Source of the DNA: a virus
Lineage: Duplodnaviria > Heunggongvirae > Uroviricota > Caudoviricetes
IMG/VR virus record: IMGVR_UViG_2660238642_000001
Strand: one strand, 5' to 3'
DNA length: 33,492 bases
Positions 1,402 through 26,890 of the stretch are shown one piece after another. Position numbers and translations under genes: made by a program. Position 1 is the first letter of the stretch; each line of letters begins with the position of its first letter. The notes under the pieces were generated by a model. It searched no databases, was not told the DNA's origin, and saw only the letters and a program-made list of their open reading frames with translations.

Positions 1402-1505
1402 GAATTGTCGTATCTCGTAATTTATGTTGCATGCGACAAGCCAGAACAACGCAGAGCGGCTTCAAATAGCTCTGGTTGAATGGCACCAAAGTTGAGGATA
1501 TCAAA
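1402..1505. promoter_or_regulatory. Divergent early promoter and operator region (Pc/Pe-type lysis-lysogeny switch)
   Basis: ~100-bp AT-rich intergenic spacer between the divergently transcribed C and cox, as in the P2 switch. I could not assign -35/-10 hexamers or operator repeats with confidence. Confidence 0.4.
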
Positions 1506-1862
1506 ATGAGTATTGGATCAGAAATGAATAACGATGTTGGAGAAAAAGTATCTGATCTCACAAAAAGTAAAAAATGTGACATCAAGCTCGCTGCCGCACC
1601 GTCGGATCTACTCTCGAAAGAGGGTTTTGCTCTTTACATCGGTAAGACGCCTCGCGCTGTAGCTGAAATGGCGAAAGCAGGCAAGCTGCCTGCCTTTTAC
1701 ATGGCAGACCCATTAAAGCCGGGAGGTCATGCTGAGTTATGGATTAATCGTCGTGAGTGGGACAAGTACGCAGCACAGCTAGTCGATGAAGCTCCATCAG
1801 AATGGCACGACTGGAAAAATCGCATTAGTTATAGCAAATCAAGACATGGCCGTGCGGCTTAA
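1506..1862 (+). CDS. cox: Cox-like excisionase and early transcriptional regulator
   Basis: First rightward gene after the switch region. The ATG at 1506 is preceded by GAGGAT. The track ORF starts at 1476 and an ATG at 1524 is also possible. ~118 aa, longer than P2 Cox (91 aa); assigned by position and small basic character. Confidence 0.65.
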   Translation: MSIGSEMNNDVGEKVSDLTKSKKCDIKLAAAPSDLLSKEGFALYIGKTPRAVAEMAKAGKLPAFYMADPLKPGGHAELWINRREWDKYAAQLVDEAPSEWHDWKNRISYSKSRHGRAA

Positions 1863-2603: not shown

Positions 2604-2828
2604 ATGCATACAGTTTCTGAAAATCAGTGCGGTAAATACGCATTACTGCTGCAACAGGCCAGAACCGAAGCACAGGCCGATGCAGCGACGCGCTTTTCTT
2701 CTCATCTTGACGCCATGATTCGCCACATCACAAAGGCGGAGTTATCCCGCGTGGAGATAGTCGAGCTGCTCAGTCAGGAGTCGGAAAAATTTCACAATAT
2801 CGGATTGTCTCGCAGGGAGGTGCTTTGA
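2604..2828 (+). CDS. Hypothetical early protein (P2 orf80 position)
   Basis: 74-aa ORF in the early operon with backbone-like composition. Confidence 0.5.
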
Positions 2829-3130
2829 TGTCCTGTTCTCGTTCGGTTGTATTACCGAATAACGCCTTAAAAATCGCCGTTATGAAAAATGGTGATTTGT
2901 CTCTTATTCAACTTGGTCTTGATAAAGAGAAGTGCGACATAACTGAATCTGTTATCGCGATTTATCAGAGTGAATTAAACCTCCTGTCTGATGTGGTCAA
3001 TTTACTTGTTAAACGCGCTGTATTTCACAAGCAAATTTCATCCGTGGATGAGCTGACAAAATTAACGACAGAAATCGCCAGCTATTGCGCTGATGAATTT
3101 AAGAAACTGAACGACAAAAGGAACTGGTAA
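2825..3130 (+). CDS. Hypothetical early protein (P2 orf81 position)
   Basis: 101-aa ORF overlapping its neighbours by 4 nt (ATGA-type coupling). Confidence 0.5.
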
Positions 3131-3354
3131 TGCCGGACAACGTAGATTTCATTCAGGAACAACAGGCTGAATTACTGGAGCGCCAGATTAACGCGGCGAG
3201 GGTAAAACATTGCGGTGCTTCTGCGCTGGTTTGCGAAGAGTGTGATGTGCCAATACCTGCTGCCCGTCGTGCGGCTTATCCGTCAGCCACGCGTTGTGTT
3301 TCCTGTCAGTCAGTCTTTGAAGCAAAAAACAAACATTACCGGAGAACGTCATGA
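3130..3354 (+). CDS. TraR/DksA-family C4 zinc-finger protein (P2 orf82-like)
   Basis: 74 aa with CEECDVPIP...RCVSCQ (CxxC-N17-CxxC) near the C-terminus, typical of phage TraR homologues. Confidence 0.7.
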   Translation: MPDNVDFIQEQQAELLERQINAARVKHCGASALVCEECDVPIPAARRAAYPSATRCVSCQSVFEAKNKHYRRTS

Positions 3355-3626
3355 GTATTCGTATTGAAATTGGCGAACGTTATGTCGTTACCAGTGACAG
3401 CTTTCAGTTTATTCTCCACGAGAAAAAGAGAGCGGAAAGCGGTAAAAACGCCGGTCAGGAATGGTTGGCGGTGGTTGGTTATTACCCGAAATTAAGCCAG
3501 CTCGTTTCCGGCCTGATGCATCACGATATTCTGACCGGAAGCGCAAAGTCTTTTGCTGATTTAAACGCGCAGGTTGAGCAACTCAGCAAGCGTTGTTCAG
3601 AGGCTTTGGGCTCATATGGCCGTTAA
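3351..3626 (+). CDS. Hypothetical early protein (P2 orf83 position)
   Basis: 91-aa ORF coupled to its neighbours, overlapping the start of A. Confidence 0.5.
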   Translation: MSIRIEIGERYVVTSDSFQFILHEKKRAESGKNAGQEWLAVVGYYPKLSQLVSGLMHHDILTGSAKSFADLNAQVEQLSKRCSEALGSYGR

Positions 3627-5895
3627 AGCCTCCGGGCGTTTTGTCCCTCCGTCAGCATTTGCCGCAGGCACCGGTAAGACGTTTACCGGTGCTTATGCAT
3701 GGAACGCGCCACGCGAGGCTGTCGGGCGCGAAAGACCCCTTACACGTGACGAGATGCGTCAGGTGCAAGGTGTTTTATCCACGATTAACCGCCTGCCTTA
3801 TTTTTTGCGCTCGCTGTTTACTTCACGCTACGACTACATCCGGCGCACTAAAAGCCCGGTGCACGGGTTTTATTTCCTCACATCCACTTTTCAGCGTCGT
3901 TTATGGCCGCGCATTGAGCGCGTTAATCAGCGCCATGAAATGAACACCGACGCGTCGTTGCTGTTTCTGACAGAGCGTGACCATTATGCGCGTCTGCCGG
4001 GGATGAATGACAAGGAGCTGAAAAAGTTTGCCGCCCGTATTTCATCGCAGCTTTTCATGATGTATGAGGAACTCTGCGATGCATGGGTTGATGCACATGG
4101 CGAAAAAGAATCGCTGTTTACGGATGAGGCGCAGGCGCATCTGTATGGTCATGTTGCTGGCGCTGCACGTGCTTTCAATATTTCCCCGCTCTACTGGAAA
4201 AAATACCGTAAAGGACAGATGACCACGAGGCAGGCATATTCTGCCATTGCCCGTCTGTTTAATGATGAGTGGTGGACTCATCAGCTTAAAGGACAGCGTA
4301 TGCGCTGGCATGAAGCGTTACTGATAGCTGTCGGGGAGGTTAATAAAGACCGCTCACCTTATGCCAGTAAACACGCCATTCGTGATGTGCGTGCACGCCG
4401 CCAGGCAAATCTGGAATTTCTTAAATCGTGTGACCTTGAAAACAGGGAAACCGGCGAGCGCATCGACCTTATCAGTAAGGTGATGGGCAGTATTTCTAAT
4501 CCAGAAATTCGCCGGATGGAGCTGATGAACACCATCGCCGGTATTGAGCGTTACGCCGCCGCAGAGGGTGATGTGGGGATGTTTATCACGCTGACCGCAC
4601 CGTCAAAGTATCACCCGACACGTCAGGTCGGAAAAGGCGAAAGTAAAACCGTTCAGCTTAATCACGGCTGGAACGATGAGGCATTTAATCCAAAGGATGC
4701 GCAGCGTTATCTCTGCCGTATCTGGAGCCTGATGCGCACGGCATTCAAGGATAATGATTTACAGGCCTACGGTTTGCGTGTCGTCGAGCCACACCATGAC
4801 GGAACGCCACACTGGCATATGATGCTTTTTTGTAATCCACGCCAGCGTAACCAGATTATCGAAATCATGCGTCGCTATGCGCTCAAAGAGGATGGCGACG
4901 AAAGAGGTGCCGCGCGAAACCGTTTTCAGGCAAAACATCTTAATCGGGGCGGTGCTGCGGGGTATATCGCGAAATACATCTCAAAAAATATCGACGGCTA
5001 TGCACTGGATGGGCAGCTCGATAACGATACCGGCAGACCGCTGAAAGATACTGCCGCGGCTGTTACCGCATGGGCGTCAACGTGGCGCATTCCGCAATTT
5101 AAAACGGTTGGCCTGCCGACAATGGGGGCTTACCGTGAACTACGCAAATTGCCTCGCGGCGTCAGCATTGCTGATGAGTTTGACGAGCGCGTCGAGGCTG
5201 CACGCGCCGCCGCAGACAGTGGTGATTTTGCGTTGTATATCAGCGCGCAGGGTGGGGCAAATGTCCCGCGCGATTGTCAGACTGTCAGGGTCGCCCGTAG
5301 CCCGTCGGATGACGTTAACGAGTACGAGGAAGAAGTCGAGAGAGTGGTCGGCATTTACGCGCCGCATCTCGGCGCGCGTCATATTCATATCACCAGAACG
5401 ACGGACTGGCGCATTGTACCGAAAGTTCCGGTCGTTGAGCCTTTGACTTTAAAAAGCGGCATCGCCGCGCCTCGGAGTCCTGTCAATAACTGTGGAAAGC
5501 TCACCGGTGGTGATACTTCGTCACCGGCTCCCACGCCTTCTGAACACGCCTCAGCAGTGCTTAATCTGGTTGATGACGGTGTCATCGAATGGAGTGACCC
5601 GGAGGTCGTGAGGGCGCTCAGGGGGGCATTAAAACACGGACTGAGAAGACCAAACCGCCAGCAAAGAAACGGAAGCACGTTAAAACCACATGAAATTGCA
5701 CCATCGGCCAGACTGAGCCGGTCGGAACGATTGCAAATTACCCGTATCCGCGTTGACCTTGCTCAGAACGGTATCAGGCCGCAGCGATGGGAGCTTGAGG
5801 CGCTGGCGCGTGGGGCAACAGTAAATTATGACGGGAAAAAATTCATGTATCCGGTCGCTGACGAATGGCCGGGACTCTCAACATATTATCAATGA
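3616..5895 (+). CDS. A: Rolling-circle replication initiator (endonuclease) A
   Basis: ~760 aa from the ATG at 3616 (MAVKASGRF..., matching the P2 gpA N-terminus as recalled; the track ORF begins earlier at 3574). Contains the HUH motif EPHHDGTPHWHMMLF and paired catalytic tyrosines in GYIAKYISK. Confidence 0.9.
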   Translation: MAVKASGRFVPPSAFAAGTGKTFTGAYAWNAPREAVGRERPLTRDEMRQVQGVLSTINRLPYFLRSLFTSRYDYIRRTKSPVHGFYFLTSTFQRRLWPRIERVNQRHEMNTDASLLFLTERDHYARLPGMNDKELKKFAARISSQLFMMYEELCDAWVDAHGEKESLFTDEAQAHLYGHVAGAARAFNISPLYWKKYRKGQMTTRQAYSAIARLFNDEWWTHQLKGQRMRWHEALLIAVGEVNKDRSPYASKHAIRDVRARRQANLEFLKSCDLENRETGERIDLISKVMGSISNPEIRRMELMNTIAGIERYAAAEGDVGMFITLTAPSKYHPTRQVGKGESKTVQLNHGWNDEAFNPKDAQRYLCRIWSLMRTAFKDNDLQAYGLRVVEPHHDGTPHWHMMLFCNPRQRNQIIEIMRRYALKEDGDERGAARNRFQAKHLNRGGAAGYIAKYISKNIDGYALDGQLDNDTGRPLKDTAAAVTAWASTWRIPQFKTVGLPTMGAYRELRKLPRGVSIADEFDERVEAARAAADSGDFALYISAQGGANVPRDCQTVRVARSPSDDVNEYEEEVERVVGIYAPHLGARHIHITRTTDWRIVPKVPVVEPLTLKSGIAAPRSPVNNCGKLTGGDTSSPAPTPSEHASAVLNLVDDGVIEWSDPEVVRALRGALKHGLRRPNRQQRNGSTLKPHEIAPSARLSRSERLQITRIRVDLAQNGIRPQRWELEALARGATVNYDGKKFMYPVADEWPGLSTYYQ

Positions 5896-6308
5896 TGATT
5901 GACATGAATATACTACTGAGATTAATCAGATCATCGATTGATTCCAAGATTATAGTATGGAATGGGAACCGTAAACCGCTCTGAGAGTTGTATGCATATA
6001 TGCCTGAGGGCAAAGCTTAACGTGGTTATTTTGACCAACGTCAGCTACCTAAGAGTTATGGCTGGTCTTATGCTTCTGCATTCCCACAAGCATGTGATGT
6101 GTGGGAAAATGGAGCAGGGAAATCTAAGTTAAGTTGGATTCTAATGTAATTAAGATGCCTAAGTTTGCTTATCTTTCGCTGTGACGTGGAACTTTGTTAT
6201 GATACTGCATGCATAAACAGTTGTTTTCTGCTGTTTAAATTACCAGTGAGCACTTTTGCTTGCTAAGTATAGAATGTAGTCATTTTAAACATGTTGCAAG
6301 GTAGTATC

Positions 6309-7451
6309 ATGGCTGAAGAAGCAGGGCGCTTAACATTTTTTGATGTAACGAAAGCTGGTTTTTACAATCTTAAGGATGAAGTTCAAAAAAGCACGGATAT
6401 TGTAAATATATTAGACTCCCTGTCCAACTGGGTTTGTTCTCGTTCTTTTGAAGAAACCCTACCATTGGTTGATGACTCTAGACTGCGGAAAAAGGTTTAT
6501 TGTCGAGGTGTGCATAAAGATGAAAAGACAGGCGATTATTTTTTTGTGCTTTGGAAATCAGAACTTGATGGCAATGGTAATCTTCAGGGGGTTGCGCCAG
6601 ATTCACAGGTAAATTCATCATCTAGTGACGTTAAGATGCTTTCGGATGATATGACTGATGGGGTTAAATATATTTGGGGTAAGCCATGTTATTACTGGTA
6701 CATCCCTGAGTTCAATAAATTTGCTGCAATTCGTTTCCCTCACTCAAACTCAGACACTTATCTTTTTAGTCGCTATATTAGAGATTATGCTAATTTCAGA
6801 ATGCCATATCCCGGGCGTAAAATTGCAGAAGTATGCAGACCAAATCCAGGTGGGAAAGACATAAAGTTTAGTGTTGTTACATTTGAAAGTGATGACGGAA
6901 GTTCACGAGTAAGATTTTTATTTGAAGCGCAGCAGTATATGAAAAAAGCTGGGCGTATAAATATAAAGAAGATTCGTGACTCTATAACACATATTGTAAT
7001 AAGAGATACAATTGGAGCTAAAGTTCCAGATAAAAGAGCTTGGTGGGTAAAGGCTTTTGATAAATTTCCTGTATTACGTGATGAAGTACCTAAGACTCAT
7101 AAAGAACGACAGATAGAGTTAATTATTGAAGAAAGACCAACTGAAAAGCAAATTGACGAACTTTTCGATTTTTATGAAGAGGATTATGCTTTCGGCTCTT
7201 CTTGGAACAATATCGGCTTCAAACAGGATGGTAAGAATGGGCAGACTAAGTGGTTAGATGAATATGTTATGCGTGATTATTTGAATGCTACTTATACTGT
7301 AAATGATAACGCACATATCTCGGCTGAGAAATTGGCAGAGTTAATTAATGATAAACGAAAAGAACTCGTAAGTGGTCTCGATGGTTATGAGATTGATAAA
7401 ACTCAAGTTATACCTTCGGGAAATAACAATGAGGTCGCTATAGGAGGATGA
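6309..7451 (+). CDS. Hypothetical soluble protein, first gene of the island-1 two-gene operon (candidate defence protein)
   Basis: ~380-aa ORF in a clearly AT-rich island. The ATG at 6309 is preceded by AAGG; the track start is 6291. No Walker, RT, or nuclease motifs recognised. An Rx4H string (RDSITH) is present but not diagnostic. The stop is 1 nt from the start of the next gene. Confidence 0.6.
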   Translation: MAEEAGRLTFFDVTKAGFYNLKDEVQKSTDIVNILDSLSNWVCSRSFEETLPLVDDSRLRKKVYCRGVHKDEKTGDYFFVLWKSELDGNGNLQGVAPDSQVNSSSSDVKMLSDDMTDGVKYIWGKPCYYWYIPEFNKFAAIRFPHSNSDTYLFSRYIRDYANFRMPYPGRKIAEVCRPNPGGKDIKFSVVTFESDDGSSRVRFLFEAQQYMKKAGRINIKKIRDSITHIVIRDTIGAKVPDKRAWWVKAFDKFPVLRDEVPKTHKERQIELIIEERPTEKQIDELFDFYEEDYAFGSSWNNIGFKQDGKNGQTKWLDEYVMRDYLNATYTVNDNAHISAEKLAELINDKRKELVSGLDGYEIDKTQVIPSGNNNEVAIGG

Positions 7452-7452
7452 T

Positions 7453-7959
7453 GTGATAATAAAGATCCTTATTGGGATTCTCATGGCCTTCGTTCTGCTT
7501 GTTGGCGGTTTTAGCATTTCAGAAAGCGTCAAATATTCATATGTTGTTGATCTTCTTGGTGTTTTGCAAAATACGTCCGCGATGATTTTTGCAATTGCTG
7601 GTATTTGGCTAGCTTATCTCTATCCAAATGCAATCGCTGGTTTGATGAAATCTGAAAAAGTGGATTTTTTAGCAAGCAAAAGTGAAGCGAAGCGCATAGA
7701 AGGTATGATTCTTATTATCATTATGTCCGCTACTGTATTAATTTTTATTATTGCTTTTTACGCATTTAATGCTGTTCTCCGCGGTACGGATTTCTATGCG
7801 AACAATCGTCACCTTATTAAAGGTGTGAGTTGTGTATATATCTTGAGTATATTACTGACTCAACTGTCATGCGTTATTGTTCTTATTTGGAGAAATGTCT
7901 CGTTTATAAATAGGTTGTATACAGTAATAAACGAAAAAGAATTGGAGGAAAAGTTATAG
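7453..7959 (+). CDS. Small 4-TM integral membrane protein, translationally coupled partner
   Basis: GTG start 4 nt after AGGAGG (7443-7448) and 1 nt after the upstream stop. 168 aa with four hydrophobic stretches of ~20 residues (IIKILIGILMAFVLLVGGFSI, AMIFAIAGIWLAYLY, MILIIIMSATVLIFIIAFYAF, VSCVYILSILLTQLSCVIVLIW). Confidence 0.6.
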   Translation: MIIKILIGILMAFVLLVGGFSISESVKYSYVVDLLGVLQNTSAMIFAIAGIWLAYLYPNAIAGLMKSEKVDFLASKSEAKRIEGMILIIIMSATVLIFIIAFYAFNAVLRGTDFYANNRHLIKGVSCVYILSILLTQLSCVIVLIWRNVSFINRLYTVINEKELEEKL

Positions 7960-7991
7960 CGAACGGCATTTAATGCTGTTTTAATGATCTT

Positions 7992-8030
7992 AAGGGGTGT
8001 TTTTAATGCACCCCTTTCATGATTTTTTTT
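7992..8030 (+). terminator. Rho-independent terminator closing the island-1 two-gene operon
   Basis: Perfect 8-bp stem AAGGGGTG / CACCCCTT with a 9-nt loop, followed within 6 nt by a T8 run. Confidence 0.55.
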
Positions 8031-8076
8031 AGTGTTTGTTGTTTTTAATAAGAATTGTGAATTAACAGGAGAGGAT

Positions 8077-8808
8077 GTGATACACATAACAAAGCCAGGA
8101 ATTTTATTTAAGTATCGTAAGTTTGATAAAAACAATCTGAAGCTGTTATTGAATCGTGAGTTATGGTTTGCAAAACCAGATACTCTTAATGATCCTTTTG
8201 AAGCAAATTCTTCATTTTCAAATGTGCTTGATGCTGTTTGGAAACATTATCCACTGCCTCTTGATATGAGAATTAAATATGAGAGATATCTTAAACAGTC
8301 ATTGCAGCAAGTCGGAATTTGTTCCTTTAGTAAAGCGAGGAAAAATCAATTGATGTGGTCACATTATGCCGATGAACATAAAGGTATTTGCATTGGCTTT
8401 AAAGAGGAGTATTTGAAGAAAGCTGGGGTTTCTTTTTTGGAAGCAGATGTGGAATATCAGGATAATTATCCCTTTGATGATATTGTTAAACGTATTCATT
8501 ATTTTGAGGATAATGAATGCCTTAACGGGTTTGATAATATTTGCGGGGATATTTTACTTTCTATTTTAACGACAAAGTACACAAGTTGGAAATATGAAAG
8601 GGAGCGCCGATTGATTGTGGAGAATTTTGGAGCAAGGAAATTTGAACCTTTAGCGGTCAATTCTATAGCTTTTGGGTTAAGAATGAAGGAAAGAGATAAA
8701 AAAACGCTACTGACTCTATTGTCAGGCCCAGAGTGGTCGCATTTGAAATGGTTTCAATCAACGAAATCATCAATTAAATACTCTTTAGATTTCATACGTA
8801 TTAAATAG
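8077..8808 (+). CDS. DUF2971-like protein (unknown function)
   Basis: LWFAKPDTLNDPFE and MWSHYADEHKGICIGF match my recollection of the DUF2971 signature. The track ORF starts at GTG 8032, but a GTG at 8077 preceded by AGGAGAGG and lying downstream of the terminator is the more likely start. Confidence 0.55.
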   Translation: MIHITKPGILFKYRKFDKNNLKLLLNRELWFAKPDTLNDPFEANSSFSNVLDAVWKHYPLPLDMRIKYERYLKQSLQQVGICSFSKARKNQLMWSHYADEHKGICIGFKEEYLKKAGVSFLEADVEYQDNYPFDDIVKRIHYFEDNECLNGFDNICGDILLSILTTKYTSWKYERERRLIVENFGARKFEPLAVNSIAFGLRMKERDKKTLLTLLSGPEWSHLKWFQSTKSSIKYSLDFIRIK

Positions 8809-9211
8809 CTTTCAAATAGTTACGGTGGTTGTCATGTTATCGTCCCTCTTAACTGTCAGATCTGATTGAATACTGGATATGTAACCTATCAGTTGGTGTC
8901 TGAGTTAATACAACTGAAAGTATCAAACTGATGGCTTTTGTTCACAGTCGGCAGCAGATAATGAAGCACGAAAATCTGATGCTTGATGCGTTGGTTGGAG
9001 GGCAATTAGTCCGGGAGAATTACGGGTTGCTTAACGATATCAGTCCATCCAGAATGGCTCCGTCATCACACAGATGATAGAGAACGCCGCTAGCCGTGAA
9101 ACTTGTTTCTAGTGTTAGCGGGGGGGAACAATGAGTGCAGCGATGCGTTAGACTTATTTGTGTATTATGGCTTAATCTCGGATAGAGTTTGTTATCTGGA
9201 GAATAGGTTAT

Positions 9212-9631
9212 ATGGTGACGCTTGATACTGTGTATTGGAAGTTTGGTTATGCATCGGAAGCTGCCCAATTATTGGAGACTGAATTAATAAATGCCCTCAC
9301 TGAGTATGATATGAAGCAAGGGGGGGATATAGCGTCGTTGAAAAAACAGTTTCTAGAAATGGATAAGTACACGCTGGGTAAACTGAATTACGCACTGAAG
9401 TCAAGGATGGTGGGGGATGCTGATACACTGGAGCATGTGTCAGATGCTCTTAAAGCCAGAAACTACTTGGCACATGAGTTTTATCGCAAACATGCTGATG
9501 GTAAATTCACTCCAGAAGGAAGGCAGAGAATGCTTGCTGACTTAAAAAATATACATCAAATAATTTTTGAGGCTTACCGCAAGGTTCTGCAACTAAGTGA
9601 CATTGATATTCCTCCTTTAGAGCATGATTAA
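9212..9631 (+). CDS. Small alpha-helical HEPN-like protein (putative RNase or toxin)
   Basis: 139 aa, charged and helix-prone, with ARNYLAHEFY (R83-x4-H88-x2-Y91) resembling the HEPN Rx4-6H motif. Stand-alone gene at the distal end of the island. Confidence 0.45.
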   Translation: MVTLDTVYWKFGYASEAAQLLETELINALTEYDMKQGGDIASLKKQFLEMDKYTLGKLNYALKSRMVGDADTLEHVSDALKARNYLAHEFYRKHADGKFTPEGRQRMLADLKNIHQIIFEAYRKVLQLSDIDIPPLEHD

Positions 9632-9633
9632 AT

Positions 9634-9673
9634 CTTGCATGCATTAGATGCATTAGATGCATTAGTTTGCATG
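9634..9673. repeat. Tandem 9-bp repeat GCATTAGAT (about 2.8 copies) bracketed by TTGCATGC direct repeats
   Basis: Directly visible: ttGCATGCATTAGATGCATTAGATGCATTAGtttGCATGC immediately after the stop of the HEPN-like gene. Confidence 0.6.
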
Positions 9674-9768
9674 CCTCATTCGTTATTTTCATATTCGAGT
9701 GCCGTCAGTGTCGGCATGGTTTTGACGGATTCATACATCTGCATTAAAACCGCCCCATGAAGCGGGCG

Positions 9769-9787
9769 GGCGAGGCGGGGAAAGCAC
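9769..9787. other. cos site (19-nt cohesive-end sequence of P2)
   Basis: GGCGAGGCGGGGAAAGCAC matches the P2 cohesive end as I recall it. It lies between the accessory island and the portal gene Q, the position expected for a linearly integrated P2-type genome. Confidence 0.65.
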
Positions 9788-9956
9788 TGCGCGCTGGCGG
9801 TGGTGCTGATTTTATTTTTTCAGCGTCTGAGCGCGTCGTGATGGCGTTTAGATTGTGCGCCGGGGCGTTGGTGTGTCTGCGGGGTGTTTTGTGCGGTGGT
9901 GAGCGTGTGAGGGCGTGATGACGGGATGTAAAAAAGCCGCCCGCAGGCGGCGATGT

Positions 9957-10991
9957 TCAGCCGTTGTCAGTGTCCAGTGAGTAGTTTTTAAAGCGGATGA
10001 CCTCCTGACCGAGCCAGCCGTTTATCTCGCGGATCCTGTCCTGTAGCGGGATAAGCTCATTGCGGACAAAGACCTTAGCCACTTTCTCAATATCACCCAG
10101 CGACCCGACGTTCTCCGGCTTGCCGCCCATCAACTGAAAGGGGATGCGGTGCGCGTCCAGCAGGTCAGCGGCGCTGGCTTTTTTGATATTAAAAAAATCG
10201 TCCTTCGTCGCCACTTCACTGAGCGGGATAATTTTAATGCCGTCGGCTTTTCCCTGTGGGGCATAGAGAAACAGGTTTTTAAAGTTGTTGCGGCCTTTCG
10301 ACTTCACCATGTTTTCGCGAAGCATTTCGATATCGTTGCGATCCTGCACGGCATCGGTGACGTACATGATGTATCCGGCATGTGCGCCGTTTTCGTAATA
10401 CTTGCGGCGGAACAGCGTGGCCGACTCATTCAGCCAGGCAGAGTTAAGGCCGCTGAGATATTCCGGCAGGCCGTACAGCTCCTGATTAATATCCGGCTCC
10501 AGCAGATGAAACACGGAGCCGGGCGCGAAAGGTGCCGGCTCGTTGAAGGACGGCACCCACCAGTAAACATCCTCCTCCACGCCACGGCGGGTATATTTTG
10601 CCGGTGAGGTTTCCAGTCTGATGACCTTACCGGTAGTGCTGTAACGCTTTTCCAGAAACGCATTACCGAACACCAGAAAATCCAGCACAAAGCGGCTGAA
10701 ATCCTGCTGGGAAAGCCACGGGTGCGGGATAAACGTTGAAGCCAGAATATTACGTTTGACGTAAATCGGTGAGCTGTGATGCACGGCAGCACGCAGGCTT
10801 TTTGCCAGACCGGTAAAGCTGACCGGGGGTTCATACCATCTGCCGTTACTGATACATTCGACATAATCCAGAATGTCACGGCGGTCGAGTACCGGCACCG
10901 GATCACCAAAGGTGAATGCCTCCATTTTCGGGGCGCTGGCGGTCATTTTTTTTGCCGCAGGTTGCGGTGTTTTCCCTTTTTTCTTGCTCAT
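9957..10991 (-). CDS. Q: Portal (capsid vertex) protein
   Basis: 344 aa, the P2 gpQ length. First gene leftward of cos and followed by the large terminase gene, as in P2. Confidence 0.9.
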   Translation of the reverse strand: MSKKKGKTPQPAAKKMTASAPKMEAFTFGDPVPVLDRRDILDYVECISNGRWYEPPVSFTGLAKSLRAAVHHSSPIYVKRNILASTFIPHPWLSQQDFSRFVLDFLVFGNAFLEKRYSTTGKVIRLETSPAKYTRRGVEEDVYWWVPSFNEPAPFAPGSVFHLLEPDINQELYGLPEYLSGLNSAWLNESATLFRRKYYENGAHAGYIMYVTDAVQDRNDIEMLRENMVKSKGRNNFKNLFLYAPQGKADGIKIIPLSEVATKDDFFNIKKASAADLLDAHRIPFQLMGGKPENVGSLGDIEKVAKVFVRNELIPLQDRIREINGWLGQEVIRFKNYSLDTDNG

Positions 10992-12763
10992 CAGTAAAAC
11001 TCCAGAATGGTGGATGTCAGCGGAGTGCTGATACCGGCGGTGAGTGGCTCATTTAACAGAGCGTGCATGGTCGCCCAGGCGAGGTCGGCGTGGCTGGCTT
11101 CCTCGCTGCGGCTGGCCTCATAGGTGGCGCTGCGTCCGCTGCTGGTCATGGTCTTGCGGATAGCCATAAACGAGCTGGTGATGTCGGTGGCGCTGACGTC
11201 ATATTCCAGACAGCCACGGCGGATGACGTCTTTTGCCTTGAGCACCATTGCGGTTTTCATTTCCGGCGTGTAGCGGATGTCGCGCGCGGCGGGATAGAAC
11301 GAGCGCACGAGCTGGAACACGCCGACACCAAGGCCGGTGGCATCAATACCGATGTATTCGACGTTGTATTTTTCGGTGAGTTTGCGGATGGATTCAGCCT
11401 GGGTGGCAAAGTCCATGCCTTTCCACTGGTGACGCTCAAGTATCCTGAATTTGCCACCGGCCACCACCGGCGGTGCCAGCACCACGCATCCGGCGCTGTC
11501 GCCACGGTGTGACGGGTCGTAACCAATCCATACCGGGCGGGAGCCGAACGGATTTGCGGCAAACGGCGCGTAGTCTTCCCATTCTTCCAGAGTGTCGACC
11601 ATGCAGCGTTGCAGCTCCTCGAACGGGAACACCGACGCCTTGTCGTCAACAAATTCACACATGAACAGGTTTTTAAAATCGTCGGCGCTGTTTTCGCGTT
11701 TGAGCTGCTCAATGTCGAACAGCGTGCAGCCGCCTTTCAGCGCGTCCTCAATGGTGACAATCTGCCGCCACTGGCCGTCCGCACAGAGAAGACCTCCGGC
11801 AAGGGCGTTATGACTGACGTCGATTTCCACGCGTTCGGCGGCGCTGGCGCGTCCCCGGTTGAACAGTTCACCCGACCAGAACGGGTAGGCGTCGTGCGCC
11901 AGCGTGGACGGGGTGGAGAAATAGGTCGAGCGCAGGTGGCTCTGTGAGGCCATACCTGATGCCACCTTACGCAGTACCTGAAAATTCGGGATCCAGAAAA
12001 TCTCGTCGACGTACAGGTCGCCGTTATGGCTCTGCGCGGTGTTGGAGTTGGTGCCGAGAAAAATCAGTTTTGCGCCGTTATTGCCCAGGACAATCGGGTC
12101 ACCGGTCAGGTCAACGTCAACCAGACGGGCAAAGGCGATGATGTATTCGCGGAACACATACGCCTGCGTTTTACTGGCCGACAGAAAAATCTGGTTATGA
12201 CCGGTTTTCAGGGCGCGCAGCAGCGCCTCGCGGGAAAAATAAAACGTTGCGCCAATCTGGCGGGATTTCAGGATATCGCGGATGCGGTGCTCAAGCCCGG
12301 CGCGATACCAGTGCAACTGATAGTCGAAAGACTGCTCAAAGAAAATCTGCTCCAGCTTTTCGATGGCCTCGTCACTGAAAAAATTCTTTTTCGGTTTGCG
12401 CCGCCCGCCTTTGTTGCGGTTAGCGACGTTCGGATTAAGGTCTGCCTCGTTGCCGGTCTGACTGTAACGGTTGACCCGTGCCAGTCGTTCAATCTGACGT
12501 CCCAGCAGGTCAATTTCCTTGAAGTCACCGCCGGTTTTCTGCGGTTTGATGATGAGCTGGGTCAGCCGCGCTTCCAGACTCATTTCGACACGGCTGATGG
12601 GGGCAACGCTGTCCCAGCCGTCGCGCTGTTTCCAGCTCTGCACCGTCGGGCGTTTCATCTGCAACATGGCGGCAATCTGCGGCACGGAAAACCCCTGCCA
12701 GTACAGCAGCGCCGCCTGACGACGCGGGTCGTGTAAAAGAGTGGTGTCTGTGGTGATGGTCAT
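10991..12763 (-). CDS. P: Terminase large subunit (ATPase)
   Basis: 590 aa from the ATG at 12763, which is preceded by GAGGT; the track extends to a TTG at 12793. Same length as P2 gpP and coupled to Q. Confidence 0.9.
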   Translation of the reverse strand: MTITTDTTLLHDPRRQAALLYWQGFSVPQIAAMLQMKRPTVQSWKQRDGWDSVAPISRVEMSLEARLTQLIIKPQKTGGDFKEIDLLGRQIERLARVNRYSQTGNEADLNPNVANRNKGGRRKPKKNFFSDEAIEKLEQIFFEQSFDYQLHWYRAGLEHRIRDILKSRQIGATFYFSREALLRALKTGHNQIFLSASKTQAYVFREYIIAFARLVDVDLTGDPIVLGNNGAKLIFLGTNSNTAQSHNGDLYVDEIFWIPNFQVLRKVASGMASQSHLRSTYFSTPSTLAHDAYPFWSGELFNRGRASAAERVEIDVSHNALAGGLLCADGQWRQIVTIEDALKGGCTLFDIEQLKRENSADDFKNLFMCEFVDDKASVFPFEELQRCMVDTLEEWEDYAPFAANPFGSRPVWIGYDPSHRGDSAGCVVLAPPVVAGGKFRILERHQWKGMDFATQAESIRKLTEKYNVEYIGIDATGLGVGVFQLVRSFYPAARDIRYTPEMKTAMVLKAKDVIRRGCLEYDVSATDITSSFMAIRKTMTSSGRSATYEASRSEEASHADLAWATMHALLNEPLTAGISTPLTSTILEFY

Positions 12764-12793
12764 GAATACCTCGCCGTGATGAATACACGGCAA

Positions 12794-24832: not shown

Positions 24833-24902
24833 ATCGTATTAGCTCTGGTATGAGATTACTCATCTATGGCACAGAGTAAAACCTAATCAGGCTGTCCGTT
24901 CC

Positions 24903-24918
24903 GTGCCAGGAGCGGACG
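24903..24918. repeat. Copy 1 of a direct repeat GTGCCAGGAGCGGACG (within a ~27-bp imperfect repeat that forms a hairpin)
   Basis: Exact 16-mer seen again at 25827-25842. The surrounding sequence GTCCGTTccgtgccagGAGCGGAC can fold as a stem-loop. Lies just downstream of G. Confidence 0.6.
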
Positions 24919-25229
24919 TTGTAAAGTTTATTTGGAGAATAATGGTTAGAAGAACTATGTAGATCATAGCCCTCTAAAGTCAGTAGTCTTACACCATATA
25001 AATGGTCATTTAGAGATAGTACACCACCTACAAAAAACGAGATAAAGCGTGCAAGCGGCATGAAGATACATAAAATACTCCATTCTGCACTTGATGTTAG
25101 GATGAATACTGACACTCGCTTTGTAAAGATAAAGATGATCTTGAGGATGATTAGTTTATTAATTATCTCCAATGTTTGTTATTTTGTGATGATAAAGATT
25201 CTCTGGATTAATAGGATGGTAATTCAATT

Positions 25230-25257
25230 AAAAGAGACCTTATAGAAGGCCTCTTTT
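25230..25257. terminator. Hairpin with A-run and T-run flanks (candidate bidirectional terminator for the reverse-strand 3-TM gene)
   Basis: AAAAGAGACC ttatagaa GGCCTCTTTT: 9 of 10 complementary positions, about 55 bp beyond the 3' end of the minus-strand ORF. Confidence 0.45.
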
Positions 25258-25312
25258 AAGTTATGAGAGCTGATTTTATATTCAATAGAGTATTCTCATC
25301 GAAGAAATAACC

Positions 25313-25660
25313 TCATAAAATGTAAAGACAGCCAGCAAAAAAAATACAGATAAAGATAAGGGAAATAGCACACTTAACTAAGGACTGAATCCCCCGAGGT
25401 GTTCCCCATGGTTTAGACATTTGGGTTATAACCCAAATAAATAGGGCCATAAAACAGCAAACACCAGCCAATCCGAGCAGAGATATTATGACAACTCCAA
25501 ACAGATTTCCAACATCTAGTTTATCTGTTTTTGCAACTAGGGTTAACAAACCAGCAATAATAGTTGCTATCGATATTCCCGCAATGGTTGTGAGATCAGC
25601 GATAACAGCCAGTTTTTCTTTAGTATTTCCTTGAGTAAAAACCTCTAAAATTGATTTCAT
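25313..25660 (-). CDS. Small 3-TM membrane protein (island-2 cargo, unknown function)
   Basis: 115 aa. ATG preceded on the minus strand by AGGTGG. Three hydrophobic segments of ~22-26 residues. AT-rich, reverse orientation relative to the late operons. Confidence 0.55.
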   Translation of the reverse strand: MKSILEVFTQGNTKEKLAVIADLTTIAGISIATIIAGLLTLVAKTDKLDVGNLFGVVIISLLGLAGVCCFMALFIWVITQMSKPWGTPRGIQSLVKCAISLIFICIFFAGCLYIL

Positions 25661-25826
25661 GGAAAATAACCACCTACTATCGATTATATTCAGGAACTTT
25701 TTATCATAACAATATCAGATAGATAAGGATATTGTAATATTTTGGATGATTTAAACTTACTTTTGTAACTCTAATGTCCACTTTTCGCTCACAGCGGACC
25801 TTTAGCTCAGTTACCTCGTCCGCTTT

Positions 25827-25842
25827 GTGCCAGGAGCGGACG
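25827..25842. repeat. Copy 2 of the direct repeat GTGCCAGGAGCGGACG with overlapping alternative hairpins
   Basis: GCGGAC..GTCCGC and CGTCCGCT..AGCGGACG are mutually exclusive stems in gcggacctttagctcagttacctcgtccgctttgtgccaggagcggacg. Lies between the divergent island-2 genes. Confidence 0.6.
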
Positions 25843-26102
25843 CTAACCTGATTGACGGGAAATCATATTAAGTCGGCATAAAAAATTAGAATATCTTTAG
25901 TGATTATTACTAATGTGTGTGTATAACTTATGCCTAATTTATCGCTCCGGCTGAGGGAATCTTGCCTCCGCTGTCACTTTTAGGTATGTTAACAACTATT
26001 TTTACAGTGGTTCCGAGTTATGCTATCTAACAGATTACTTGAACCGAGTCCGTTTATCAGTATGGCGTTTTATATGCTCAGAGTCCATCCAAGGAGTGAC
26101 TT

Positions 26103-26579
26103 TTGAAATTTGAACAAATCTATAAAAATATTACTGGCCTTAGCTGTCCCATATTCGGGATTCAGTGGAATGCTCCAATAATAGAAACTGACGAAGCGAA
26201 GAAGATCGTCATTTTTCTTGAGGACAAGCGCGTTCTTTTCAATCCTGTCGACATGGAGGGTGCTAGTCATTGCACTTCGAGTGTTATCAACATTAGATCT
26301 GAATTGACTAAAGTCCTACAAGGTTTGCCGAGCGATTCACATTTAGCAAAACAATTAAGGAAAATGAGAAAAGCATGCCAAGAATTCTGTGACAGCGTTG
26401 GCTCCCCTCACTTTATCCAACTTGATCATCCTGTTCAAATATCCATACTTGAGCGAGCCCTTTTTAAACTGCGACAAAAGTGTGGTAACTCTCTGGCAGA
26501 AATAGCGGTTACCTATGGTCTTGATGTTGATGACGGATTGGCCAGTATTATCCCTTTTAATAATCCCAGTAACATATAG
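26103..26579 (+). CDS. Hypothetical protein (island-2 cargo, unknown function)
   Basis: 158-aa ORF (track coordinates), AT-rich, non-canonical start, divergent from the 3-TM gene and followed by a strong terminator. No recognisable motifs. Confidence 0.5.
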   Translation: MKFEQIYKNITGLSCPIFGIQWNAPIIETDEAKKIVIFLEDKRVLFNPVDMEGASHCTSSVINIRSELTKVLQGLPSDSHLAKQLRKMRKACQEFCDSVGSPHFIQLDHPVQISILERALFKLRQKCGNSLAEIAVTYGLDVDDGLASIIPFNNPSNI

Positions 26580-26766
26580 CAATGACTATGAATTTGCTTG
26601 CTGGATTAATTATCATGCAACCGACAGTTTTGGGTCGGAAGCGGTTAGCAAATTAGTCATTAGTGAGTCGTTATGTCCGTTCATCGCTCAAAGCAGACTG
26701 TCAGATTTAATAGCGTTTTGATTATGTAACTTGTCAGTTGGAAGCTGAGTGAGAACAAATCAAGGC

Positions 26767-26795
26767 AGGCGGGCTGATTGCCCGCCTTTTCTTTA
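26767..26795 (+). terminator. Rho-independent terminator separating island 2 from the FI late operon
   Basis: Perfect 8-bp stem AGGCGGGC / GCCCGCCT with loop TGATT, followed by TTTCTTTATTT. Confidence 0.65.
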
Positions 26796-26890
26796 TTTGT
26801 TGTTTCATCCACTGGCCAGCCAGGTCAAATAGCGTCTCATGCTCTGCACAACAGAAAATAGTTGCACCCATTAACCACGGAGTTAAACGG

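Follow-up and report, generated by a model that had tools for sequence, protein, structure and literature searches.

A prophage-borne DUF2971 protein with a predicted ADP-ribosyltransferase fold as a plausible single-gene anti-phage candidate in the P2 defence hotspot

Aristaios, a 316-aa DUF2971 protein encoded by the Lactococcus plasmid pUCCL641D, is a validated single-gene, Abi-like system (Grafakou et al., 2024; PMC11381338). According to later work, it blocks phage transcription or protein production. In a published survey of ADP-ribosyltransferases (ARTs), DUF2971 is placed in the H-Y-E clade, its catalytic motifs are defined as HYx, Yxx, and ExE (Table 1 of that survey), and its likely substrate is given as "protein or bacteriophage DNA" (PMC12522546). 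The PDC systems form a set of 145 candidates nominated by guilt-by-embedding (Payne et al., bioRxiv 10.1101/2024.01.29.577857), among which PDC-S31 is a single-gene model of a family nominated from members embedded in defence systems; no paper turned up when the literature was searched for "PDC-S31". In P2-like phages, the region between gpA and gpQ constitutes a defence hotspot, where old and tin sit in P2, and P2 hotspots also house cargo unrelated to defence, for example cytolethal distending toxin (Rousset et al., 2022; PMC9122126).

The window analysed herein, i.e. the whole 33,492-nt stretch of the IMG/VR record IMGVR_UViG_2660238642_000001, is a complete P2-like prophage, running from the integrase through capsid and tail genes (Table 1). 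The ~4-kb cargo stretch between gpA and the portal gene differs from the rest in base composition, with a GC content of 32-39% across 6000-9000 versus 50-60% in the phage backbone. The DUF2971 gene within it is foreign cargo in the known P2 defence hotspot. It shares with old, tin, and other gpA-gpQ cargo the slot, the low GC, and a presumed role in inter-virus competition, whereas the proteins encoded by those genes are unrelated to the DUF2971 protein.

This cargo was already catalogued. An entry in Table S5 of Rousset et al. lists WP_001576644, WP_001576647, WP_001576649, and WP_125093550 under the label "hypothetical + DUF2971 + hypothetical + hypothetical" and matches the window exactly, and the exact 243-aa DUF2971 protein is also included in the same table as a single-gene P2-hotspot entry (PMC9122126). 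The 243-aa protein is absent from the evaluated systems in Table S2 of the same study, and sequence fragments of this protein and of the two proteins encoded upstream occur in the catalogue table only, not in the table of tested systems (PMC9122126). The validated three-gene P2 system described by those authors (phage AC1) was considered as a possible counterpart of this locus and ruled out, as it consists of TIR and TM proteins. A megablast search against sequenced phages found no record with this cargo, PSP3 matching only the conserved flank and orf139.

Table 1. Features of the prophage, its cargo region, and the DUF2971 gene (positions in the window; residues numbered from GTG 8077).
Feature	Position	Strand	Remarks
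Integrase	1-996	minus	
Cox	1476-1862		
gpA replication protein (Phage_GPA)	3574-5895		
Variable cargo region, gpA to portal	5896-9956		Published P2 defence hotspot
Cargo ORFs	6291/6309-7451, 7453-7959, 8032-8808, 9212-9631	plus	
PDC-M18A	6309-7451	plus	First gene of the adjacent two-gene candidate system; PGAP start
PDC-M18B	7453-7959	plus	Transmembrane protein ending at 7959
Smaller first hairpin	7961-7981	plus	Directly 3' of the stop of the upstream gene; folding analysis
Terminator-like hairpin and T-run	7992-8030	plus	Hairpin 7992-8016, then T8 run 8023-8030; between the upstream pair and the DUF2971 gene
Mechanical ORF	8032-8808	plus	From the ORF list of the window
Shine-Dalgarno-like AGGAGAGG	8067-8074	plus	AGGAG core 5 nt ahead of GTG 8077
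DUF2971/PDC-S31 coding sequence	8077-8808	plus	243 aa and stop; predicted ART-fold protein
LNDPFE motif, residues 37-42	8185-8202	plus	N38-D39-P40 invariant in the divergent family; identical in Aristaios
H96-Y97-A98	8362-8370	plus	Published DUF2971 motif I, HYx; Y97 100%, H96 at least 90%
Y127	8455-8457	plus	Published motif II, Yxx (here Y127-Q-D); invariant; 31 residues past H96
E174-R175-E176	8596-8604	plus	Published motif III, ExE; opens strand 176-181 of the model
Portal (Phage_portal)	9957-10991	minus	
Terminase	10991-12793	minus	

The coding sequence almost certainly begins at GTG 8077, behind AGGAGAGG, and the extension of the mechanical ORF from 8032 to 8076 is probably untranslated. 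A first-pass annotation of the sequence had proposed this ORF with the same GTG as its probable start, which is borne out by the PGAP annotation of E. coli, where 18 identical chromosomes have this start (243 aa, WP_001576647.1), by ~120 homologues 239-244 aa in length whose alignment starts at the residue encoded by this codon, and by the AGGAG-N5-GTG arrangement kept in two diverged cassettes (NH-21 and L084). Comparison with an 83%-identical copy gave a dN/dS of 0.13, indicating that the reading frame is maintained by purifying selection.

Membership of the DUF2971 family, recognised in the first-pass annotation from the LNDPFE motif and from WSHYADEHKGICIGF (residues 94-108), both of which are present, was confirmed by Pfam (PF11185), with a match above the gathering threshold (E 9.2e-11, 43.4 bits against a cut-off of 22) that extends over model positions 1-89 of 89. 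The same Pfam family was matched by all 25 divergent relatives examined. PADLOC matched five PDC-S31 models to the 243-aa protein (best E 5.4e-47), and PHROGs assigned it to phrog_1762, of unknown function. The family is large: among clusters at 50% identity, a profile built from 35 orthologues retrieved 30,300 when E was allowed up to 1e-3 and 590 when it was limited to 1e-30.

In the alignment of the 25 divergent relatives, which has a mean column identity of 21%, N38, D39, P40, W94, Y97, G103, Y127, K167, W171, E174, E176, R178, and G200 are invariant, and L92, H96, and Y173 are conserved in at least 90% of the sequences. The residues corresponding to the three published catalytic motifs (H96-Y97, Y127, and E174-x-E176) vary little or not at all in sets of 25-96 divergent relatives, a conservation that is partly circular for two motifs, because both served as peptide patterns in retrieving the loci. 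The retrieval patterns did not include Y127, K167, G103, G200, or the NDP motif.

Aristaios is the nearest characterised relative. Its gene, at 2812-3759 of the retrieved pUCCL641D sequence, was identified by strain, plasmid, length, and domain rather than by a published sequence. The two proteins share 26% identity over ~210 residues (BLASTP E 2e-12, 223 aligned columns), and hhalign relates them with 98.5% probability (E 3.6e-15, ~206 columns); Aristaios matches the PDC-S31 models of PADLOC too (5.3e-33). LNDPFE, MW-HYA-HKG-C, and W-YE-E-R are common to both, YENEFR in Aristaios being the conserved counterpart of the E174-R175-E176 motif. They are also alike in being single genes with a DUF2971 domain, a predicted ART fold, and carriage on a mobile element. 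Aristaios differs in having an N-terminal extension of ~60 residues and a Y in place of R14, and it resides on a conjugative plasmid of a Gram-positive host, whereas the DUF2971 gene belongs to a P2-like prophage. The phenotype of Aristaios was tested experimentally, whereas the 243-aa protein is a candidate by homology; a literature search found no published test of this protein or of a close orthologue.

The genomic contexts of orthologues were surveyed in a sample of ~10 neighbourhoods, which illustrates the range of settings and is not a statistical test of enrichment. The orthologues of K. aerogenes (56% identity) and Leclercia (55%) occupy the same gpA-portal hotspot of P2/186-like prophages, with other cargo. 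In Providencia (61%), the gene lies in a P2-like remnant, between a tail-fibre assembly gene and gpU/gpD, with an AAA_15 system nearby, while in K. quasipneumoniae (53%) it is found at a prophage edge, adjoining tail-fibre genes. The Citrobacter orthologue (66%) is carried by a P4-like satellite island, that of Serratia (65%) is located behind an AbiC/AbiP-like gene, and that of Photobacterium (62%) adjoins hsdM-hsdS-SIR2-hsdR, i.e. a type I restriction-modification (R-M) system with an embedded SIR2, a setting akin to that from which the PDC-S31 family was nominated. Across the sample, the gene is met in phage, satellite, and defence settings. Relatives were also encountered on ~600 plasmids, and several sequenced phages and phage-plasmids, SSU5 and Cyrano among them, encode one. 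The mobile carriers comprise prophages, satellites, plasmids, and Tn7-like transposons. No conserved partner gene was observed, the neighbours being different in every sampled lineage. A GNAT or other ORF of ~177 aa upstream of marine orthologues was considered as a partner and rejected because such ORFs are mutually non-homologous.

An AF2 model of the 243-aa protein, built on the orthologue alignment, had a pLDDT of 82.7 and a pTM of 0.80. In Foldseek, DarT was the sole credible match (probability 0.98 and 0.96), with a moderate fold similarity (TM ~0.4, 141/243 residues aligned, 9% identity). DarT has one catalytic Glu, and Tpt1/KptA RNA 2'-phosphotransferases are housekeeping RNA-repair enzymes with other catalytic residues. 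The genomic context of Tpt1/KptA is unlike that of the DUF2971 gene, and the DUF2971 protein differs from DarT in bearing ExE instead of a single catalytic Glu and in its large helical insertions (residues 47-78 and 133-164). The resemblance to DarT is one of fold, with no similarity at the sequence level: neither the subfamily profile nor the broad family profile matched any PDB chain at E up to 10, which makes a residue-level alignment to DarT impossible, and the H-Y-E catalytic residues were located through their motifs rather than by superposing structures. Likewise, the 243-aa protein matched only DUF2971 and no DarT family in Pfam at E up to 0.1, and the 25 relatives yielded no ART-family match besides DUF2971 at E up to 1. 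The genetic arrangement differs as well, DarT being paired with the DarG macrodomain antitoxin in DarTG, whereas the DUF2971 gene has neither DarG nor a conserved partner. No DarG macrodomain was detected by Pfam in the flanking ORFs 6291-7451, 7453-7959, and 9212-9631, none of which had a Pfam match above the curated cut-off.

From the model and the motifs, the 243-aa protein is predicted to adopt a DarT-like ADP-ribosyltransferase fold in which the H-Y-E motifs are kept. The description of DUF2971 as a family of unknown function, adopted in the first-pass annotation, is outdated: the published survey assigned the ART fold independently and predicts an H-Y-E-clade ADP-ribosyltransferase, with which the fold search agrees (PMC12522546).

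On balance, and with moderate confidence, the gene is interpreted as autonomous single-gene cargo of mobile elements that encodes a cytoplasmic, infection-triggered ART of the DUF2971/PDC-S31/Aristaios family. An anti-phage role of the 243-aa protein appears fairly likely from its genomic context and its homology with Aristaios, while the modelled fold tips the balance slightly towards ADP-ribosyl transfer as its chemistry. In the lysogen, the protein would be made and held in an inactive or harmless state. Upon infection by a second phage, it would spend NAD+ to ADP-ribosylate a target needed in phage gene expression, most likely a nucleic acid because of the fold, or alternatively one of the proteins that carry out transcription or translation. 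The infection would then be halted in an abortive or exclusion-like manner, which would protect the lysogens as a population together with their resident prophage. Besides the anti-phage activity of the 243-aa protein itself, the features that we infer are catalysis with NAD+, what the target and the trigger are, and a promoter belonging to the gene.

A more elaborate mechanism, which is regarded as unlikely, envisages a stand-alone DarT-like ART that has no antitoxin and is kept inactive by an intrinsic mechanism; activated by a specific cue from the phage, it would ADP-ribosylate phage nucleic acid, either DNA or RNA, with a specificity of a new kind. In a variant, it would cooperate with the neighbouring PDC-M18 sensor/membrane pair within the co-inherited three-gene block, although each part can exist alone. 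The ART fold could also support another chemistry, the protein being an NAD+ glycohydrolase, a Tpt1-like RNA 2'-phosphotransferase, or a non-catalytic nucleic-acid binder, with defence exerted through NAD+ depletion or RNA processing instead of ADP-ribosylation. This is deemed unlikely, as the structure search points foremost to DarT transferases and the conserved ExE is typical of transferases (PMC12522546). The block of phage transcription or protein synthesis ascribed to Aristaios suits the modification of a target, but would be compatible with NAD+ depletion too.

The interpretation as an autonomous ART depends on how the gene relates to the PDC-M18A/B pair encoded upstream, which the first-pass annotation had left as a choice between an independent single-gene unit and a third component of the pair. 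The 117-nt spacer separating them is highly structured, folding better than 200 of 200 shuffled sequences (z = -4.5). In diverged cassettes, its first hairpin is retained in part, the changes being paired, and the second recurs together with its T-run in NH-21 and L084, with a different stem sequence. The hairpin at 7992-8016, which had been taken for a strong terminator, is real, but its strength can only be presumed, given that 6 nt lie between the stem and the T8 run. A scan for sigma-70 consensus promoters found none between the hairpin and GTG 8077, so that the promoter that had been attributed to the gene, and with it transcriptional independence, is conjectural. An Rfam search of 5800-10000 with E up to 1 gave zero matches, hence no sign of an RNA antitoxin or riboswitch.

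The empty promoter scan would be consistent with a three-component system in which the DUF2971 protein is the effector of PDC-M18A/B and the hairpins only tune the expression ratio. The pair accompanies the DUF2971 gene in 19/19 complete E. coli genomes that hold it, and the same trio is found in a Klebsiella-type scaffold and in E. coli NH-21, one of these 19 genomes, which carries a diverged version (83-93% protein identity) in the same gene order, located in a non-P2 island that is flanked by IS1 and lies beside rclR/ykgE. Moreover, the three genes diverged jointly (dS 0.49, 0.68, and 0.74), all under purifying selection. However, the trio is limited to one closely related block, in which none of the three genes falls below 79% identity, and beyond it the two parts separate. 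None of 80 species-representative loci with DUF2971 relatives contained detectable relatives of M18A, M18B, or orf139 within 8 kb, and the pair was absent from the nine sampled contexts of DUF2971 orthologues at 50-66% identity (9/9), as well as from viral contigs with orthologues at 50-56% identity. Conversely, M18A and M18B are kept together in seven viral contigs (71%/54% and 49%/37% identity) with no DUF2971 gene within 6 kb. In these contigs, which represent other prophage types, the pair is followed on the 3' side by a CI-like repressor, a Cro-like HTH, or a tape-measure gene; the notion that the M18 pair is invariably followed by some variable effector was rejected, as these downstream genes are phage backbone.

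With the pair occurring without DUF2971 and DUF2971 without the pair, the trio is best described as one co-inherited block of two separable modules. The P2 hotspot entries of Rousset et al. list the two separately and in unequal numbers, with 82 loci for the pair and 60 for the DUF2971 protein (PMC9122126), PADLOC treats them as separate units, with PDC-S31 modelled as a single gene and PDC-M18 as two, and Aristaios functions alone (PMC11381338). Comparative genomics therefore favours the independent single-gene unit over the third component, a role that appears quite improbable; judged from gene distribution, the DUF2971 gene is very probably genetically autonomous.

An autonomous ART need not serve defence. 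It could act for the benefit of the phage or element itself, in host takeover, in anti-defence (like T4 Alt/ModA/ModB), or as a lysogenic-conversion effector on eukaryotic hosts. Relatives encoded by sequenced phages and phage-plasmids, SSU5 and Cyrano included, are in keeping with such a function, as are the ~18% of DUF2971 proteins predicted to be secreted effectors (PMC12522546) and the occurrence of cytolethal distending toxin among the cargo of P2 hotspots (PMC9122126). Orthologues, however, are also present outside phages, namely in islands, next to R-M and Abi genes, and on a large number of plasmids, a distribution that fits the defence of the host or element better than a function in the lytic cycle. 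Furthermore, the nearest characterised relative, Aristaios, is a plasmid-borne defence protein (PMC11381338), and plain inspection of the 243-aa protein revealed no secretion-related feature. A role of this kind is accordingly rated as distinctly improbable. A selfish addiction toxin that stabilises mobile elements with no part in phage defence, as consistent carriage on such elements and a toxin-like fold related to DarT might suggest, is the most improbable explanation, given that Pfam revealed no macrodomain and no conserved antitoxin is adjacent, that the ORFs upstream of the orthologues are mutually unrelated, and that cells tolerate Aristaios on a high-copy vector and are protected from phage by it (PMC11381338).

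The 243-aa DUF2971 protein is therefore regarded as a plausible candidate for a single-gene anti-phage factor. Its locus is already in two public catalogues, so that the present work chiefly corroborates and refines a candidate already on record. The prophage that carries it seems common in clinical ST131-type strains, the lineage being guessed from strain names rather than typed. If the protein is active as proposed, ADP-ribosylation-based immunity, exemplified by DarTG and CmdTAC, would be extended to a very large, antitoxin-free single-gene family, of which this prophage-borne member, tractable in E. coli, would give access to the target and the trigger.

The two-gene M18 pair lying upstream of the DUF2971 gene is a separate predicted candidate system in its own right. 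Neither member contained a Pfam domain above the curated cut-off, PDC-M18B is given as the membrane partner in Table S5 of Rousset et al. 2022 (PMC9122126), and the same source counts 82 P2 loci with the pair. Its dN/dS values of 0.07 and 0.10 indicate strong purifying selection. The pair is also carried by non-P2 prophages as a two-gene moron, adjoining CI/Cro-like or tape-measure genes.

Membrane proteins repeatedly adjoin the DUF2971 gene, namely M18B in the window and the small ORFs next to the Photobacterium and Providencia orthologues, which gave weak PADLOC matches to SLATT/2TM effector or DRT-associated TM models (E 8e-7 and 8e-11); these three proteins are unrelated to one another in sequence ancestry. 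The Citrobacter orthologue (66% identity), located in a P4-like satellite island, overlaps by 4 bp the stop codon of an upstream ORF for which Pfam and PADLOC returned no match, and the two genes could represent a lineage-specific two-gene variant. DUF2971 relatives at 31-36% identity were found in Pseudoalteromonas, Colwellia and Rheinheimera (loci L010, L012 and L013), where a Tn7-like module (tnsA, tnsB-like, tniB and tniQ) begins approximately 20 bp downstream on the same strand. Since this gap looks too small to accommodate a transposon end, the transposition operon may start with the ART-like gene; alternatively, that gene may be tightly linked cargo.

Features neighbouring DUF2971 genes and in the second variable region of the prophage
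Feature	Location	Strand	Details
M18 pair	window 6291-7959	+	PADLOC PDC-M18A (1e-40) and PDC-M18B (1e-19)
139-aa ORF, fourth hotspot gene	window 9212-9631	+	phrog_12893
Second variable region	window 24833-26890		between tail-fibre assembly gene and probable tail sheath gene
DUF6650 ORF in second variable region	window 26103-26579		E 2e-16
ORF upstream of Citrobacter orthologue	L089-L092, ~7117/7222-8004		260-295 aa, unannotated
Small ORF beside orthologue	L101 6057-6626		Photobacterium
Small ORF beside orthologue	L093 6125-6823		Providencia
DUF2971 relative and Tn7-like module	L010 8001-13087		same layout in L012 and L013

The fourth gene of the hotspot, encoding 139 aa, matched neither Pfam nor PADLOC models, and window 9097-9654 shares ~81% nucleotide identity with gp38 of Salmonella phage PSP3. 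Because the diverged cassette of the E. coli genome NH-21 lacks this ORF, it counts as a distinct cargo element. It is preceded by 400 bp of non-coding DNA (8809-9211), in which Rfam gave no match. In the second variable region, where the bounding tail sheath gene was assigned from position alone, the small unannotated ORFs other than the DUF6650 ORF had no PADLOC match.

Within the hotspot catalogue, row 71 of the Table S5 summary sheet is the exact DUF2971 protein of the window (243 aa), listed as 'Peptidase_M78/HTH_31/HTH_3' in what looks like a shifted label, while row 65 holds a different DUF2971 protein of ~370 aa, present in 65 loci (Rousset et al. 2022, PMC9122126). Thus, at least two DUF2971 types of unrelated length occupy the P2 hotspot. 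Identical cargo was detected in 18 of the 5,426 complete E. coli genomes (H21-H38). Judging only by strain names, among them SaT040, CD306 and that of an O25:H4 isolate, these genomes may belong to the ST131 lineage; on these grounds, the cargo appears to reflect the clonal spread of a single prophage and not repeated independent gains.
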